From the NCBI GenBank assembly GCA_019306365.1, contig JAFDLS010000016.1, positions 1 to 44,647 of the forward strand: a DNA stretch of 44,647 bases, written 5' to 3'. Both the position numbers and the translations under genes were made by a program. Shown here piece after piece: positions 28,206 to 38,466 of the stretch (positions within the stretch are counted from its first letter, which is position 1; the number at the start of each line of letters is the position of its first letter). The notes below the pieces were generated by a model. The model saw only the letters and a list, made by a program, of their open reading frames with translations. It did no database searches and was not told the DNA's origin. Origin of the DNA: Deltaproteobacteria bacterium (GTDB taxonomy: Bacteria; Desulfobacterota; Desulfarculia; Adiutricales; JAFDHD01).

Positions 28206-28463
28206 TCAGGAATCAGATTTTTCAGATCCGGAAGCTTTCTTTTTCTTCTGGCCGAAATTGTTAGCCACACCAGCGTATTTTCTCTGAAATCGTTCCACGC
28301 GGCCAGCGGTATCTATCAGTTTCTGCTTACCCGTGAAAAAGGGGTGGCAGGCGGCACAGATTTCAACTCGAATTTTTTTGGCTGTAGACCCGGCCTCGAA
28401 CTCATTGCCGCAAGCGCAGCTGGCTTTTATAATGTTGAATTCCGGGTGAATGTCCTTTTTCAT
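28206..28463 (-). CDS. rpmE: 50S ribosomal protein L31 (zinc-binding type)
   Basis: [33 protein letters not shown]. Confidence 0.98.
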
Positions 28464-28617
28464 GATTTCCTTAGTCCTCCATCAATCAATAAATTTTTTA
28501 TTATACATATTTTATCAACAGTTTCAATTCATTTCCCGGGTTACCATGTATTGAAAAGCATAAATTTGGTTATAGCGATTCTTATGAGTCCCGGCCTAAT
28601 CAATTCAATGCCATATT

Positions 28618-28823
28618 GAGACCTCTGCAAAACTTCGTTCTTTAGCCGAACTCATGAACACCGCTTCGCTCATGCTGCAGCGGTTTTGAGCACTGTTTCG
28701 CTGACGCTGCAGCGGCATATGTCAGGCTCAAAATTAAGTCCTCGAAATACTTGGTAATATTCCTGCGGGTTAATTTTTCGCCTTCCACGATTTCAACAAA
28801 ATTACTGATTTTGCAGCGGTCTC
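28618..28823 (-). mobile_element. MITE copy 1 (206 bp), GAGACC-type terminal inverted repeats, 5-bp target duplication ATATT
   Basis: Starts GAGACCTCTGCAAAA, ends TTTTGCAGCGGTCTC, with ATATT on both sides; interior homologous to 30912-31084 and 33403-33610 in inverted orientation. Confidence 0.85.
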
Positions 28824-29024
28824 ATATTATTAAACGGCAATAGTGATTGCCGATTGGGTTGTGAAAAATATTTCTGGCAATCGCGTTGATCCGCTAAAAT
28901 AGCCGAACGGGTCGTCTGTCAGTCGATTTTTAACCGGAACGTACCTCTCGCCCGGAGTTTCACGGGTGAGACAACCTATTGTTTTGACGGGAGAAAGCTT
29001 TCAGGACATATAAGACACAAAAGG

Positions 29025-30272
29025 CTAACTGTTCATGGAGCTGAGAAAGGCTTTATTGTTTTTGGTGCCGCGCATCTTATCCAGTAGAAAATCCATGCTG
29101 TCTATGGGAGTCAGCGGCGAAAGCACCTTTCGCAGGACCCAAGCCCGGTTGAGTTCTTCCGCCGTAAGAAGGAGTTCTTCTTTTCGGGTTCCTGAACGGT
29201 TGATATCTATGGCGGGGAAGACTCTTCTATCCGCGAGTTTACGATCCAAATGGAGCTCCAGGTTGCCAGTGCCTTTGAATTCCTCAAAAATGACCTCATC
29301 CATCCGGCTGCCGGTTTCTATCAAAGCGGTGGCGATGATGGTAAGAGAGCCGCCTTCTTCTATGTTGCGCGCCGCGCCAAAAAAGCGTTTTGGACGATGC
29401 AGGGCGTTGGAATCAACACCGCCGGAAAGAATCTTCCCTGATGGCGGGACCACGGCGTTATATGCCCGAGCCAGGCGGGTGATACTGTCAAGCAGAATAA
29501 TGACGTCCTTTTTGTGTTCGACCAGGCGTTTGGCTTTTTCCAGAACCATCTCAGCGACCTGCACATGGCGCTGCGCCGGTTCATCAAAGGTGGAGCTGAT
29601 GACCTCTCCCTTGACCGACCGCTGCATGTCCGTCACCTCTTCCGGCCGCTCGTCAATGAGTAGTACGATCAAAGTCATATTCTTATGATTCGTGGTGACG
29701 CTGTTGGCCAGGTCCTGGAGAAGCATTGTTTTACCGGTTCGGGGGGCAGCCACAATCAAACCGCGCTGGCCCATACCAACGGGGGTCAAAATGTCCATAA
29801 CCCGCATACAGTAATTATCCGCACTCGTTTCAAGATGAATTCGCTCGTCAGGGTACAGTGGAGTCAGGTTGTCAAAAATGATTTTATCCCGAGATAATTC
29901 AGGGTCATCAGAGTTGACGCCATCCACCTTAAGCAACGCATAATAGCGCTCATTCTCTTTGGGAGGTCTTATCTGGCCGGTAACCGTGTCACCGGTGCGC
30001 AGATTGAAACGCTTGATTTGACTTGGAGAGATATAAATGTCATCCGGTCCGGGGAGGTAGTTGGATTCAGGGGCTCTCAGAAAACCAAAACCATCAGGCA
30101 AGGTTTCCAGAACTCCGCCGCCGTATATCAAACCGTTTTTTTCCGTTTCCGCCTGAAGAATGCTGAAAACCAGCTCCTGCTTCCTGAGGCTGGCCGCCCC
30201 ATCGATATTGTATCCCTTAGCCATAGAGGTCAGTTCGGATATTTTTTTAACTTTCAATTCAGCTAAGTTCAT
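29025..30272 (-). CDS. rho: Transcription termination factor Rho
   Basis: [56 protein letters not shown]. Confidence 0.99.
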
Positions 30273-30824
30273 TTGAATGCTGTTCCTTTCCTTAGGGGTG
30301 AGTATCGTTGCGGTAACATCTCTTTTTAATCTAACTTCCTTTCATTACATTACAATTTAATATTTCTAGCGCCCAATGATCATGGATTACTTACTTCTTA
30401 TGGATTTGGGCAATGTTGTTTATTTTTTAACAAACTCAAAAAACTTGAGTTCTCAGATAAGCCTTTTTATTTCATATAGAAATGTTTTTTACTGGCACAA
30501 ATTACTCAGGATAATCTATGGTTGGCGCCCATCTGTTGTATTTGATCTGCCGTAATATGCCGCCCAGCGTTAAATTTGGGTCAAGTGCGGCCTTGTAATT
30601 CGCGCCAAGGTAAATCAAGGCAGGCGTTCTATTTTTTCTTGGTATCAAAATACTCTATTCTCAATGAATAAAGTCTGATCTTGTTGTTTCCACTAAAGGA
30701 TTTCCTGAGAATCTAGGAATTATAACCAAGCAGTCTAATGGTAAGTCCTTAATAATATATCTAATTGGAGTGGATTTGTCTCCCGGCGCGAGAAGAACGC
30801 GCACTATAATTTGGATTCAGGTTA

Positions 30825-30853
30825 AATATAATCTGTACATTGAAAATTGTCAA
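30825..30853 (-). promoter_or_regulatory. Near-consensus sigma70 promoter for rho
   Basis: Minus strand TTGACA (30853-30848), 17 nt spacer, TATATT (30830-30825). Confidence 0.6.
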
Positions 30854-30911
30854 GCTAATTCGGATTGATATCCTCTGTTTTCAATCTTGATCCGGATAAA
30901 AAATCCAGACA

Positions 30912-31084
30912 GAGACCTCTGCAAAACCAGTAATTTTGTTGAAATCGCGAAAGGCGAAAATGTAGCCCGCAGGAATATTGCCAATATTTCGAGGACTTAA
31001 ATTTGAGACTGACATATGCCGCTGCAGCGTGAGCGAAGCGGTGTACATGAGTTCGGCTAAAGGACGAAGTTTTGCTGAGGTCTC
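30912..31084 (+). mobile_element. MITE copy 2 (173 bp), GAGACC-type terminal inverted repeats, 5-bp target duplication AGACA
   Basis: Starts GAGACCTCTGCAAAAC, ends GTTTTGCTGAGGTCTC, with AGACA on both sides; carries one 32-bp internal unit instead of two. Confidence 0.85.
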
Positions 31085-31389
31085 AGACAGACTCACCTCA
31101 CTAAAGCACTCCTCCTTCAAGGGCGATTGCCAAAAATATTTCCCATCAATAAAGACAGTTGATTTGATGTACAATGAACCCGAAGACAGCGATGATCATG
31201 GAAATCGCCCGGGATTCTTTTTGATTATCAAAAAGCCGCGCTCGCATTCGCAACCTCTGCGGACATTTTAACTCACCCTTCAATCGTAACCAAATTTTGG
31301 CTATCATTCTAACTAGATATATCCTCAATAAGCGGGAAGCCTGAAATCGCCGTTCTGTTGTATTCATTAAAGTTCCGTCATATAAATAA

Positions 31390-32349
31390 TTAATTTATCT
31401 CATCTTTTTCCAAAGACTCAAGAACACGGGACATATCTTCAGGCACATCCGTCTTAAAAGTCATCTCATGGCCGGTAACCGGGTGAAGAAAACTGATACT
31501 CTGAGCGTGAAGCATCTGTCTTTTAACCAGACCCTTTAACGGTCCGCCGCCCTTCTTGAGCCATCCCAGACCAACACCATAAACGCGGTCACCAAGGATT
31601 GGACAACCAATGGAAGCTAGGTGCACCCTTATCTGGTGAGTTCTGCCGGTCAGAATATTCACACGAAGCAGTGAAATCCTCTGCCCGAAACGACGCAGGA
31701 CCGTAAAACGGGTCAAGGCTGACCTGCCTGAATTCGATCTGGTTGACATCTCTTTACGCCGCACCGGATGCCGGCCAATAGGCGCGTCGATTTCACCTTG
31801 ATCCATCTTGGGCCAACCCCGGCACAACGCCACATAGAATTTGGTTATGCGACCGTCCGTAAACTGATTTACTAACGATTGATGAGCCCTATCCGTCTTA
31901 GCCACCATCATGATCCCGGAGGTGTCTTTGTCCAGACGGTGTACGATCCCGGGCCTGGCCTCACCTCCAATGCCGGTTAAATCAGGACATACAGCCAGCA
32001 ATCCCTGAACCAATGTGCCGGTACGATGACCGGCCGCCGGGTGGACAACCAGGCCAGCGGGTTTGTTGACAACGATCACGTCCTGATCTTGATATATTAT
32101 GTCGAAAGAAATGTCAGGCTCAGGTACCAGCTGACTGGGAATCGGGCTTGGCACAAACAGGGTTACTGTCTGCCCTTCTTTTAGTTTTTGGCTGGCTTTC
32201 ACCGGAGCGTTATCAACCTGGACGTGACCTTGATCGATCAAGCGCTTGAGTTGAGACCGCGAAAGGTCAGGATTTACGCCGGCTAAAAAGCGATCCAACC
32301 GCTCGCCGCTGGTATGTTTGGGGACAAGGTATTGCAGACTTTGGGCCAC
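31390..32349 (-). CDS. rluD: RluA-family pseudouridine synthase with N-terminal S4 domain (RluD-like)
   Basis: ERLDRFL, VNKPAGLVVHP, GIVHRLDKDTSG (catalytic Asp), TGRTHQIRVH, RQMLHA. Confidence 0.9.
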   Translation of the reverse strand: MAQSLQYLVPKHTSGERLDRFLAGVNPDLSRSQLKRLIDQGHVQVDNAPVKASQKLKEGQTVTLFVPSPIPSQLVPEPDISFDIIYQDQDVIVVNKPAGLVVHPAAGHRTGTLVQGLLAVCPDLTGIGGEARPGIVHRLDKDTSGIMMVAKTDRAHQSLVNQFTDGRITKFYVALCRGWPKMDQGEIDAPIGRHPVRRKEMSTRSNSGRSALTRFTVLRRFGQRISLLRVNILTGRTHQIRVHLASIGCPILGDRVYGVGLGWLKKGGGPLKGLVKRQMLHAQSISFLHPVTGHEMTFKTDVPEDMSRVLESLEKDEIN

Positions 32350-32516
32350 TGGCTTCTTTAAGGATAAGACAAATAAATAACGGCCGTTATTCGGTTATAG
32401 CCGCATAACAAGGCAATCTCGAACCGGAAGGGATGGTTTTATTCAGCAGATAGATAGTAATGAGTGTTTATATCCCGCCCTTTTAATAAAAGTTAAGCGG
32501 AATCAGGACTTGCGTT

Positions 32517-32999
32517 CTAGTTACGGAAACAGCCGAGTATCTTGCTCTCAACTTTACTCTCAGTCAAATCCTCAGCCGCGGAAATCTCCTTGACCAAAAG
32601 ATTAAGAGCCGTATCCAGCATCTTCCTTTCACCAAAAGAAAGTTCCTTGATGGCCTTTAGCAGAATTAAGTCTCTTAAAACCATGGCCACCTCAAAAACA
32701 GACCCGGTTTTTATCTTATCCATATATTCACGGTATCTGCGATTCCAATTTTGTGTTTCCAGGGAAATATCCTGTTCCTTAAGGATGGTGTAAACCTGAG
32801 ATACTTCTTCTGGCTCTATTATTTCACGCAAACCGACGTTACTTACGTTATCCGTCGGGATCATGATAATCATATCATTTTCAAGGATTCGCATCATATA
32901 AAAGCTTTGCTGGAGACCGGAAAAATCCTTGTTTTCGATAGCCTCGATCCTGCCAACTCCATGGGCGGGATAAACAGCCAAATCTCCCACCTTAAACAT
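32517..32999 (-). CDS. carD: CarD/CdnL family RNA polymerase-binding transcription factor
   Basis: MFKVGDLAVYPAHGVG, WNRRYREY, LSFGERKML; ATG 32999 with GGAGG RBS. Confidence 0.94.
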   Translation of the reverse strand: MFKVGDLAVYPAHGVGRIEAIENKDFSGLQQSFYMMRILENDMIIMIPTDNVSNVGLREIIEPEEVSQVYTILKEQDISLETQNWNRRYREYMDKIKTGSVFEVAMVLRDLILLKAIKELSFGERKMLDTALNLLVKEISAAEDLTESKVESKILGCFRN

Positions 33000-33297
33000 T
33001 AAATAATTTCCTCCTATTTCCAAATAACAACATAACAATTAAATATACTACTTTTTCGAAAAAATTACAAAACAAATCTGAAAACATCAAACAGAATTCC
33101 AATTTATTGATTTCGTTTTATTAGTCATAAAAAACAACATGAACAGGGTTAAATAAAAATGAATTGATAAAAATATAAAATATATTCCCGGATTATATTA
33201 ATTTAGTTGCTCTTTTGTTTTTGGTTGGGCGCTGAAAGAAAAATTTATTTTTTAATGTAATATCAAGCTGTTACAAAACAAGTAACAAACTATATAT

Positions 33298-33326
33298 TTG
33301 ACTAAGGCCGCCTTTTGGGGCATAAT
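33298..33326 (+). promoter_or_regulatory. Orphan sigma70-like promoter facing MITE copy 3
   Basis: TTGACT (33298-33303), 17 nt spacer, CATAAT (33321-33326); no credible plus-strand CDS follows. Confidence 0.4.
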
Positions 33327-33402
33327 TTTTTCTATTACTCATTTAACTAAAGATTTGTGTTTTTAAAATTGTATAAAAAGTGATTAAATGAGGCTAACTT
33401 GC

Positions 33403-33610
33403 TAGAAGCTAACTCAAAATTAGTGTCTTGATCTAAATCGAGGAAGGCGAAAATTTAACCCGCAGGAATATATTTAATATTTCGAGGACTTAATTTTTCG
33501 TACGACATATGCCGCTGCAGCGTGAGCGAAGCGGAGTTCAATACCGATGCAGTGTCAGCGAAGCGGCGCTCATGAGCTAGGGTAACCAAACTTTTTTGAG
33601 ATGATTTCTA
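33403..33610 (+). mobile_element. MITE copy 3 (about 208 bp): same core as copies 1 and 2 but different terminal inverted repeats, TA-flanked
   Basis: Starts TAGAAGCTAACTCAAAA, ends TTTTGAGATGATTTCTA. Core AAATCG.GGAAGGCGAAAATTTAACCCGCAGGAATA...TATTTCGAGGACTTAATTT...GACATATGCCGCTGCAGCG is shared; two 32-bp units. Confidence 0.75.
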
Positions 33611-33931
33611 ATAACAAACCATCTTAATTATAATTCTCAAAAAATTAAGGCCTAAACTGAAAAATAAAAAAAACAGCTAAAACCCCCTGGCAACTAAATT
33701 TTTAATATACTAAAGCGGTATTTTTTTAGCTGTGTGCATGTGAAAAATTTTTTCGCTTAAGCTCAGAAATAAAAAAACGACATTAAGGTTAACCGTTAAA
33801 ATAATAGACGTGACGAAAAAGAGGACTTAAAGGAAATAGCGTTATAGAGCAAGCGCCAAAAAAATGTTCGCTTTTATAAAGGTTTTTGATTTGAGTTGTT
33901 GTTAAAAAAAATTTCGTTTGAGTCGGAAAGG

Positions 33932-34023: not shown

Positions 34024-36051
34024 TTACATCAGCCACCCGGAGTATTTGGCCAGCAGGGGCGCGAGAACCAGGGCAACGACGGACATCAGCTTGATCAGGA
34101 TGTTCATCGCCGGACCGGAGGTGTCTTTGAACGGGTCGCCCACGGTATCACCGACCACGGCAGCTTTATGGTTATCAGAACCCTTTCCGCCGAAATGGCC
34201 TTCTTCGATGTACTTTTTGGCGTTATCCCAGGCGCCGCCGCCATTGGCCATAAACAGGGCCAGGAAAGCGCCCATAAGCATGGCGCCGAGCAGCGTCCCG
34301 CCGAGAGCTTCCTTACCCAGGAGAAAACCGACCATCACGGGAGTTAGAACGGCGATAAAACCGGGCAGAATCATCTCTTTTAGGGAAGACGCTGTAGCAA
34401 TAGCCACGCAGGTTTTAGAATCAGGCTTGACCCCGGGTTTACCTTCCAACAAGCCAGGGATTTCGCGGAACTGACGGCGAATTTCTTCCACCATCTGGAA
34501 GGCGGCCTTACCAACCGAGTTCATGGTCAGTGAAGCGCACAGCATGGGAACTATACCGCCTATAAAAACGCCAATCACAACAATCGGGTTGGTGATATTG
34601 ATAGATTCAAGTCCTGCCGCCTGGGAGTAGGCCACAAACAGAGCCAGAGCCGTCAGGACAGCCGAACCGATCGCGAAGCCTTTACCGATGGCCGCGGTTG
34701 TATTTCCCAGGGCATCGAGAGAGTCCGTGATTTTTCGGGTTTCAGGTCCAAGGCCAGCCATCTCAGAGATACCGCCAGCGTTATCGGCGATAGGTCCGTA
34801 AGCGTCAACGGTCATCGTGGCGCCAACAGTGGCCAGCATACCGACCGCGGCAATACCGATACCATACATACCGGCGAATTTATAAGAGATGAAGGTGGCG
34901 ATGCAGATACCCATAATAGGCAGCCAGGTTGACTGCATACCCAAGGCCAGACCGCTGATAATGACCGTGGCCGGACCGGTGTCGGTCTGAGCTGCGAGTT
35001 TTTTAACCGGCGGACCGGAGGTGTAGTATTCAGCCAGAAGACCGATAGCGACACCTACCAGAAGGCCGGCCAGGATCGCATAGAAAACTCCTATCGGCAA
35101 GCCCAGGGTCCGATTGATGAAAAAGCTAACGATAACCAGGAAGACGGCCGCGATAAAGGTTGTATACCTCAAAGCGGAAGCCGGATTGATATTTTTTAGA
35201 ATCTGGATGGAAAAGACGCCGATAAAAGAACAAACGAGTCCGGCTATAACCACCATGAGGGGCATAGCCATATAGGCCGAACGATCAACACCGCCCAGCG
35301 CCGCCACGCTCATGGTCGCGCCGATAGCGATGGTGGCGATAATCGATCCGACATAAGACTCGAAGATGTCAGCGCCCATCCCGGCAATGTCACCCACGTT
35401 GTCGCCAACGTTATCAGCTATAACACCAGGGTTACGCGGATCATCCTCAGGAATGCCCGCCTCGACTTTACCCACGAGGTCGGCTCCCACGTCAGCCGCT
35501 TTAGTATATATACCGCCGCCGACACGCGCGAACAGGGCAATGGAACTGGCGCCCATGGCGAATCCGTTGATGTATTTGGCTGTTGTCGGATCTCCGCCGA
35601 ACACCCAGAACCAGAAACCTACCCCCAAGAGGCCCAAAGAGGCCACGGATAAGCCCATGACTGCGCCGGAATAGTAAGAAACATTCAACGCTGCGGCCTG
35701 GCCGCTCTTGTTGGCCGCTTCCGCTGTCCGGGAATTACCCCGTGTGGCCGCAAACATTCCCATCAGACCGGCGACGATGGAGCAAATTGCCCCGGTAAGA
35801 AAGGCTATGGCGGTCCTGTAATCAACGAACAAGAACAAAAGAATGAAGACGACGACGATAAAAACGGCCAGATAAGTGTACTCTTTCTTCAAGAAAGTCA
35901 TGGCCCCGTCGTGAATCATCTTCTCCAGTTCTTGCATGGTCTCGTTACCGTTAGGTTGTTTCTTTACATAAAGATAGACCAGGTAAGCCATAATCAACCC
36001 AAAAATCCCCAAAAATGGAGCAATAACGGTAAAATCAGCTAGCTGGTTCAT
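34024..36051 (-). CDS. hppA: Membrane-bound pyrophosphatase, K+-dependent, probably Na+-translocating
   Basis: [61 protein letters not shown]. Confidence 0.97.
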
Positions 36052-38391: not shown

Positions 38392-38466
38392 TGGCTGGGG
38401 TGGGAGGATTCGAACCTCCGAATGCAGGCTCCAAAAACCTGTGTCTTACCACTTGACGACACCCCA
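38392..38466 (-). tRNA. tRNA-Gln(TTG)
   Basis: Reverse complement TGGGGTGTCGTCAAGTGGTAAGACA-CAGGT-TTTTGGA-GCCTG-CATTCGGAGGTTCGAATCCTCCCACCCCAGCCA: 75 nt; ispE-tRNA-Gln-prs synteny. Confidence 0.97.

Follow-up and report, generated by a model that had tools for sequence, protein, structure and literature searches.

The locus described here raises the question of which part of a short transposable element is preserved when one and the same middle is found between different ends. The stretch that was analysed, referred to as the window, comprises 44,647 nucleotides from a Deltaproteobacteria bacterium (contig JAFDLS010000016.1 of assembly GCA_019306365.1). It is contig C296 of an assembly of 3,586,339 bases in 383 contigs that is 90.5% complete, and this genome is labelled G000 below. 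Three intergenic repeats in the window share a hairpin core followed by 32-nt units; two of them have one kind of terminal inverted repeat (type A) and the third has another (type B). An initial annotation had described them as MITEs (miniature transposable elements with inverted repeats) in which a structured cargo, thought to have a function of its own, had been swapped between the ends of two kinds of insertion sequence (IS). The explanation that we favour, and consider probable, is that the repeats belong to a superfamily of non-autonomous transposons (MITEs) in the phylum Thermodesulfobacteriota, taken together with an apex of the hairpin that is under selection and recognised by the host.

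A MITE family with two kinds of ends

A BLASTN search of the genome with the three copies returned 1617 matches, which merged into 439 loci occupying 64,241 of the 3,586,339 bases (1.8% of the genome). A contig end is no more than 20 bp away from 18 of the 439 loci, and thus the family may add to the breaks in the assembly. Type A elements, with GAGACCTCTGCAAAA ends, are represented by 232 A-left/A-right pairs whose lengths peak at 141, 173, 205, and 237 bp. Type B elements, with GAAGCYATCTCAAAA ends, form 51 B-left/B-right pairs, with lengths of 140, 172, and 204 bp plus TA. With terminal inverted repeats of 15-16 nt paired in these 232 A/A and 51 B/B elements, an element size of 141-237 bp and no coding capacity, the repeats answer to the description of MITEs. 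The initial annotation had allowed that the ends of the third copy might be found only once; with one mismatch at most, the B end in fact occurs 158 times in G000, 26 times in the sister genome G001 and six times in G003, and the other 47 genomes of the order show no more than the background number.

Elements of both types share a common central hairpin, to which 0-5 copies of a 32-nt internal unit are added in this genus. The basic element is approximately 141 bp in length and folds as one long hairpin, and the 32-bp steps in length are tandem copies of one GC-rich unit, which was found 323 times inside the family loci and not once outside them. Among the A/A pairs, 66 have no unit, 139 have one, 24 have two, three have three and none has five; the corresponding numbers for the B/B pairs are nine, 36, three, two and one. 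With the exception of 13 copies out of 275, which overlap a called open reading frame (ORF) by more than 60 nt, the elements are intergenic.

The two types differ in the manner of their insertion. A perfect 5-bp direct repeat was found for 103 of 227 type A pairs, with 16 more matching over 4 bp and 74 having none, and the reconstructed target is the palindrome T-AAWTT-A (hyphens mark the limits of the duplicated bases). For type B, a repeat of 3 bp or more was found in none of 46 pairs; T is present at 87 and A at 86 of the 92 flanks, giving the consensus TTAY-TA-RTAA. Three B copies lie in the loop of type A cores (C186:15167-15481, C287:15426-15569, and C359:58-392), and as the sequence around the nested copy equals the A consensus if the TA is counted once, it is the TA that is duplicated. 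The loop of the type A core fits the target preference of type B, which makes the family a target for itself. The claim that there are two types of MITE end with different modes of insertion is therefore upheld, and the differing duplication lengths and targets argue for different transposases for A and B.

A partner for type A was traced in relatives. G012, a genome of the same order, has two decayed transposase genes of IS5 type that border on the A end, one on a right end that matches in 15 of 15 bases and the other on a left end that matches in 12 of 15. The best NCBIfam model for these remnants was NF033581 (IS5 family), with E = 7e-10 and a score short of the cut-off, and the remnant protein matched only itself among the genome contigs and nothing among the metagenome contigs. 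The 50 genomes of the order yielded only remnants of such a partner, and an intact relative was found among 401 genomes of the phylum, in G051. This IS of 1287 bp is present in at least four copies (loci L166-L169), of which three out of four have a 5-bp duplication; its ends are GAGACCGTTGCA and GAGACCATTGCG, of the GAGACC(R)TTGC type, and on NF033581, for which the cut-off is 140, its transposase reaches 263 bits. A duplication of 4 bp is usual for the IS5 group. As the A ends and the 5-bp duplication are common to this IS5-family IS, type A can be regarded as a MITE of a 5-bp-duplicating clade of that family. Judged from sequence, the type A ends thus belong to the IS5 family, as the initial annotation had proposed for both types of end. 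The same could not be sustained for type B, for which no partner was found: no B end, with 3-4 mismatches allowed, accompanies the PF13358 and NF033545 matches of G000-G003, G006, and G012, and a pattern search of five further genomes, including G089, gave no IS-sized B pair.

A TA duplication is made by some groups of the IS5 family and also by the Correia elements of Neisseria, and the RUP element of Streptococcus pneumoniae has been linked to IS630-Spn1. Since some IS5-family groups also make this duplication, type B is not assigned to IS630. RUP (named in PMC3049150) and other IS630-driven MITEs resemble type B and several metagenome classes in their TA flanks; the difference is that no IS630-type gene with B ends was found in the genomes examined here. 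The DDE_Tnp_1 genes of G000 are IS4-like and have other ends, and no DDE_3 match was obtained in this genome. IS4-like transposase genes are cut by contig ends at C302:5149-5934, C83:3-902, and C382:3515-4651, the last of which appears to be frameshifted. Lone end matches with two mismatches in G000 lie mostly inside ordinary ORFs. A 61-bp element with two facing B-type ends and almost nothing between them was also seen in G089, a nearly complete genome of the same class (C2:2281756-2281816).

The consensus sequences of type A (173 bp) and type B (172 bp) align end to end. Identity amounts to 11/17 in each of the terminal repeats, 17/23 in the left subterminal part, 53/66 in the core, 34/35 in the unit region and 8/17 in the right subterminal part. 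The subterminal sequence of the third copy, which had been described as different from that of the other two, is consequently not wholly so. Differences between the A and B cores are clustered at the base of the stem and in the loop, and two blocks of 22 nt between them are unchanged. The B-specific changes of the core accompany the B ends in both G000 and G001, which makes B one lineage and not the outcome of repeated swapping; B-type ends on diverged elements in metagenomes and in G089 indicate that this type of end is old. With the two types collinear and the B core changes tied to the B ends, a swap of cargo between two kinds of IS end has not been demonstrated, and descent with turnover of the ends fits the relation of A and B as well as capture does.

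Copies of the two types recombine in this genome, to judge from full-length hybrids with a B end on the left and an A end on the right (12 cases) or the reverse (six cases). On their B side the hybrids retain TA, and on their A side an AT-rich flank; they have no common duplication and look like products of recombination between copies and not like mobile units. There are also three 139-bp elements made of two left halves and nine 37-nt elements in which a B end is joined to an inverted A end, again with no common target duplication. Two of the latter are in C288 (36810-36846 and 37728-37764) and the others in C125, C182, C267, C334, C353, C123, and C147; two flank a NudC-like Nudix gene in inverted orientation and three lie in the core loop of another element. 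An origin of the hybrids through insertion of B into an A end followed by deletion was rejected, as the expected remnant of the A end was not present upstream. The near-identity of the 32-nt unit in A and B fits exchange through the shared middle.

The conserved core and its hairpin

The element was found in eight of 41 genomes of the order (G000 included), strongly in G001, G003, G006, and G012, and in six of 95 genomes of the class. Across five genomes from the order, both arms of the apex are invariant to at least 90%; the subterminal parts differ widely, and the left and right ends change together, G001 having in addition AGACCTCTTAAGAAC and G006 having GAGCCAATTGCAAAAC. For wider scans an exact pattern was used, consisting of CCGCRGGAATA, 5-10 bases and TATTTYGAGGA, with the reversed pattern as control. 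Of 401 genomes sampled from the phylum, 36 contained it (25 of 255 genera), and none contained the control. Counts of the exact pattern reached 221 in G000, 118 in G453, 60 in G300, and 57 in G265, and at least 113 metagenome contigs carry it.

Ends were found for 89 of 96 elements from these wider loci, and could be sorted by eye into at least ten classes of terminal repeat. Most of the classes have a basic length of 141-142 bp, and the centre of the motif is at base 70 of the 141-bp element. Target duplications of the wider classes were counted by script and compared with shuffled partners. The GAGACC class has perfect duplications of 5 bp in six of 15 cases (shuffled mean 0.00) and the GAGCC class of 4 bp in four of seven (0.26). 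In the GTGYC class a 6-bp duplication of the form TA-NN-TA, which may also be read as 2 or 4 bp, is perfect in nine of 18 cases (1.0). A TA duplication was perfect in four of five cases in the GAAGC/GAAST class (2.37), a weak result in which one row was misassigned. The IS5-type elements and their remnants lack the motif and show no more than single half-sites with two mismatches. A literature search on MITEs associated with IS5, on MITEs in Desulfobacterota and on the halves of the motif as text, which did not cover supplementary files, gave no description of the family; the text matches to the halves were primer-like strings in unrelated papers. On these comparisons the proposal that the hairpin core, rather than the ends, is the conserved unit holds.

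The hairpin was drawn from the sequences and its pairs were then counted, a procedure which favours the structure drawn. An order-level alignment of 82 rows (A1) was assembled by BLAST and a loose motif instead of the exact pattern. In A1, 83% of the cells pair, compared with 22-45% when the partners are slid, and 103 cells are changed on both sides of a pair, compared with 40 in shuffled alignments (none of 500 shuffles was as high). The pair count and the pair-type measure of A1 did not go beyond the shuffles, with 59 and 157 of 500, respectively, being as high. A second alignment (A2) was made from the phylum and metagenome loci, with 114 rows, all 107 distinct elements being kept. Here 85.9% of the cells pair (26-51% when slid) and 16 of 25 pairs change on both sides. 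Cells with a change on both sides number 276 (88 ± 7 in shuffles) and pair types 64 (46 ± 3), neither figure being reached in any of 500 shuffles. In A2 it is the stems flanking the motif and the loop-closing pair (C-G 73, U-A 26, G-C 9) that give the signal. The folded core of the initial annotation thus withstood a check for covariation in both alignments.

At the apex of the hairpin is an asymmetric motif with two bulged A residues and one G-A mismatch, with stems that covary closing it. In A2 one G-U pair never changes, and the pair next to it alternates between G-C (68) and G-U (46). As a G-U pair on one strand is a mismatch on the other, the hairpin is strand-specific. The RNA folding energies, forward and reverse, are -71.4 and -56.9, -58.4 and -45.1, and -64.1 and -45.6 kcal/mol, the forward strand folding 13-18 kcal/mol better than the reverse. 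No Rfam family matched the window elements at the gathering threshold or at E values up to 5, and for the metagenome copies the only Rfam matches were to precursor models of plant microRNAs, which at 31.6 bits fall far short of the threshold of 117.

Other GC-rich hairpin modules of approximately 16-35 nt were observed as insertions in elements of relatives, both in metagenome loci (L242, L257, L258; L193, L202, L224, L248, L251, L264; L213, L218, L225, L261, L327) and in locus L127 of G003. Some occupy the site of the 32-nt unit, and others follow the 3' arm directly or replace the 5' stem. The gain of such small hairpins seems to have happened repeatedly.

The three window copies and their gene neighbourhood

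The three copies, together with their core and 32-nt units, are present where they had first been placed, and the internal repeat pairs among them (I1-I8 and D1-D2) match at 73-94%. Copy 1 (28618-28823, minus strand) is a type A MITE of 206 bp with two 32-nt units and ends of the form GAGACC.../...GGTCTC. It is flanked by the duplication ATATT (28613-28617 and 28824-28828), and its central motif, CCGCAGGAATA-loop-TATTTCGAGGA in the minus-strand reading, lies at 28739-28768 and provided the pattern used in the wider scans. Full-length relatives in the same genome are 95% identical to it (e.g., C334:58089-58294). Copy 2 (30912-31084, plus strand) is a type A MITE of 173 bp with one unit, flanked by the duplication AGACA (30907-30911 and 31085-31089), and 162 BLASTN matches within the genome cover at least 90% of its length. 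The core hairpin of this copy, paired to the extent given above for the order-level alignment, extends over 30952-31010 (plus strand) and contains the invariant motif at 30967-30995; the 32-nt unit, a small GC-rich hairpin, follows at 31015-31046. Two ORFs of 97 amino acids that overlap copy 2 matched no Pfam family. The inverted ends and the two perfect duplications of copies 1 and 2 are as originally reported and agree with the 5-bp repeats of type A throughout the genome. Copy 3 (plus strand), a type B MITE with two units, had correctly been given other ends and a TA flank. On the basis of the flank counts and the nested insertions, the element proper is now limited to the 204 bp at 33405-33608, and the TA at 33403-33404 and 33609-33610 is its target duplication. 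Its central motif is at 33460-33488, and at least 90% of its length is covered by eight BLASTN matches.

All neighbouring genes are on the minus strand. Copy 1 lies between rho (29025-30272; Pfam Rho_RNA_bind, 7.6e-34, with Rho_N and ATP-synt_ab) and rpmE (28206-28463), an 85-aa ORF for ribosomal protein L31 that was named by reading its translation and not by a family search, and it points in the same direction as both. Copy 2 is situated between rho and a gene for an RluD-type pseudouridine synthase (31390-32349; PseudoU_synth_2, 1.8e-34, with S4) and points against both. Copy 3 likewise points against its two neighbours, carD (32517-33038; CarD_C, 2e-30, with CarD_TRCF_RID) and the gene for an H+-translocating pyrophosphatase (34024-36051; H_PPase, 1.2e-262). 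Pfam also names a DUF1385 gene among the neighbours. Simple scans gave no promoter-like or terminator-like site inside the three copies.

Sites lacking the element, which the initial annotation had thought worth seeking, were looked for in relatives. The matched segments of rho and rpmE are 130-169 nt apart in G001, G002, and G003, compared with approximately 485 nt in G000, and no match to the element was obtained in the gap between these genes. Copy 1 is therefore missing there, in spacers that are too diverged for an exact reading of the empty site. No match to the element was found beside rho in the orthologous contigs of the same three genomes at the site of copy 2, around which the gene order is not kept in G002. 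Elsewhere in the window, Rfam placed two tRNA genes at 1352-1435 and 38395-38466 (minus strand). A weak match to Lnt RNA at 33245-33300 (minus strand; 30.3 bits with a gathering threshold at 55, E = 0.17), in the AT-rich spacer that lies upstream of carD, is probably due to chance.

Possible roles of the apex

In the explanation favoured here, type A would be moved in trans by an IS5-family transposase, with duplication of 5 bp, and type B by a different transposase, with duplication of TA. Copies of A and B would recombine through their shared middle, giving immobile hybrids and passing the 32-nt unit between the two branches. Across the phylum the terminal 10-30 nt would have turned over many times, leading to the ten or more end classes and the four types of duplication. 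The apex, for its part, would be selected at the level of those lineages that succeed in spreading. It may act as a single-stranded, strand-specific hairpin, in the form of RNA or single-stranded DNA (ssDNA), which is recognised by a conserved host protein, and this recognition may either help the element to move or make its insertions tolerable. We suggest more tentatively that the apex, CCGCAGGAAUA-loop-UAUUUYGAGGA, is a protein-recognised RNA or ssDNA module that rides many unrelated sets of ends throughout the phylum, with a partner that governs both spread and effects on transcripts. Such a partner could be, for example, an RNA-binding protein conserved among the hosts, an RNase or a nucleoid protein. 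The module would then be the bacterial equivalent of the central domain that SINE superfamilies of animals conserve.

A number of observations weigh against this explanation. No transposase with A or B ends was found in G000, at 90.5% completeness and in 383 contigs, and no gene of the DDE_3, IS630, or IS5_3 families bounded by B ends was found in relatives. Neither a protein partner nor a transcript was seen, and one look-up of public sequencing runs for 28300-33800 gave no entry. RNAalifold gave no consensus structure for A1, in which the stems are AT-rich and interrupted. In A2, misaligning inserts are carried by 20 of 107 rows, and the motif is invariant by construction, the loci having been found with the pattern. 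In a DNA palindrome, template switching from one arm to the other can also produce compensatory changes, with no selection involved. Within the 173-bp A set, the mean divergence from the consensus is 0.044-0.047 at the ends, 0.023 in the left subterminal part and 0.069 in the core; the core diverges as much as the ends, and inserted copies are thus without visible purifying selection. The evidence from orientation, given below, is inconsistent across the A, B, and metagenome sets. The function of its own that had been attributed to the core is accordingly not borne out, the core being no better kept than the ends within the genome and the orientation bias not being general.

Crude gene calls (ORFs of at least 100 amino acids) served as the reference for orientation. 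Between tandem genes, 79 type A copies have the same direction as the genes and 27 the opposite (binomial p = 4e-7). The bias is present in all three length classes, and as the A target site is palindromic, target choice is ruled out as its cause. It is this bias, together with the strand-specific fold, the conserved G-U pairs and the intergenic position of the copies, which speaks for the core as a host-useful RNA module, a co-transcribed hairpin for a host RNA-binding protein or RNase that alters the stability or translation of mRNA. Effects of this type have been described for ERIC, Correia, and BOX elements (PMC3049150). We nevertheless think this rather unlikely, since type B (13 same, 14 opposite; Fisher p = 0.011 against A) and the metagenome copies (12 same, 19 opposite among 31, after 39 of 88 copies were left out for want of flanking genes or because of overlap) do not have the bias. 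By tertile of divergence, the ratio in type A is 28:6 in the least diverged copies, 28:6 in the middle third and 21:15 in the most diverged, the reverse of what slow purging would give, and opposite-facing copies are the more diverged (0.069 against 0.056, p = 0.015). The window copies lack promoter-like and terminator-like sites, and the cores of inserted copies lack purifying selection. The orientation bias of type A is real and is not a property of the core; it might follow the direction of replication or immediate selection. A separate idea, that GAGGA in the 3' arm is a hidden ribosome-binding site or RNA thermometer, was dropped as the orientation to downstream genes is inconsistent.

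An action of the core at the level of DNA, as a site in the centre that is bound or bent, or as a cruciform, so joining the ends of a very short element in transposition, is conceivable and no more than that in our estimate. Lineages retaining the core would then be moved efficiently by whatever transposase recognises their ends. The position of the motif at the exact centre of the element, the length held at 141-142 bp across end classes and the AT-rich stems flanking the motif are all in its favour. An effect of this kind would be independent of orientation, as in the B and metagenome counts, and would constrain source copies only, in agreement with the unconstrained inserted ones; Correia elements, moreover, are reported to bind IHF (PMC2649163). 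On the other side, the fixed G-T pair and the position that alternates between G-C and G-T are intelligible on a single strand only, neither the related intact IS nor the IS remnants carry the motif, and a candidate protein is lacking. Ordinary divergence of subfamilies, in which A and B have merely drifted, their cores remain similar through youth and homogenisation and the hairpin has no function, would account for the collinearity and near-equal length of the two types (with ends at 11/17 and the left subterminal part at 17/23), for the B core changes that travel with the B ends in both genomes and for the absence of extra core conservation in inserted copies. The hybrids prove that recombination, on which homogenisation depends, does happen. 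This is improbable all the same, because the depth at which the motif is conserved, unchanged in 36 of 401 genomes, 25 of 255 genera and at least ten end classes, is more than youth and local homogenisation suffice to explain. Moreover, the stems on both sides of the motif have been replaced by other complementary sequences, and the A/B differences are clustered, with unchanged 22-nt blocks beside blocks with 4/4 and 5/8 changes. Finally, the repeats could be REP/REPIN-like or IS200/IS605-derived hairpins moved in single-stranded form by a Y1 (HUH) transposase and not DDE MITEs at all. The hairpin core with its conserved bulges and three Y1_Tnp matches in the genome would suit this; clear terminal inverted repeats, a target duplication proper to each end class and type A ends common to IS5-family elements make it very improbable indeed.

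The preference thus remains with a MITE superfamily whose apex is recognised by the host. The CORE-SINE and V-SINE families of animals keep a central domain while the heads and tails that determine their mobilisation differ; these are eukaryotic retrotransposons, and the likeness is one of analogy only. Among bacterial repeats the BOX elements of S. pneumoniae and S. suis are also composite, hairpin-forming intergenic repeats with MITE features, and their boxB module occurs in variable tandem number as does the 32-nt unit here, a likeness of architecture only (PMC3049150). In S. suis the same boxB modules are reported between two different pairs of end modules, boxA/boxC and boxE/boxF (PMC3049150). 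By analogy, BOX of S. suis can be taken as the nearest precedent for one middle between different ends. It differs in that the shared portion is the tandem unit, whereas here it is one invariant apex, kept throughout the phylum alongside ten or more classes of end and four types of duplication.

Correia elements (CREE/NEMIS) are hairpin MITEs, approximately 100-150 bp long, that have inverted repeats at their ends and a core that is conserved; binding of RNase III in addition to IHF is reported for them, as are effects on neighbouring genes (PMC2649163). They differ in having one end type and in being confined to one genus, a comparison by description only. BrickBuilt of Porphyromonas gingivalis is similarly an intergenic MITE with a minisatellite of short units, of 23 nt as opposed to 32 nt. 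Neither a conserved apex nor multiple end classes are reported in the consulted part of its description (PMC4596501), and promoter activity is reported there, of which our scans suggest none here. The ERIC/IRU elements of enterobacteria are imperfect palindromes of similar size that are co-transcribed and have orientation-dependent effects on transcripts (PMC3049150); their mobilising enzyme and ends are not comparable, and they too were compared by description only. In these sources, none of BOX, BrickBuilt, or Correia is reported to keep one apex phylum-wide under many types of end.

MITEs are normally defined by their ends, their middles being seen as drifting junk, and in this family the reverse is found across a phylum. 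The ends and the chemistry of insertion change, and an asymmetric apex of 29 nt and the overall length stay. The recombinant forms, in addition, show that the family drives rearrangements. If the apex is needed for movement, this would imply a host factor common to several types of transposase. If instead it acts in RNA, the hundreds of copies per genome would be a ready-made layer of regulation located between the genes of these uncultured relatives of sulfate reducers.

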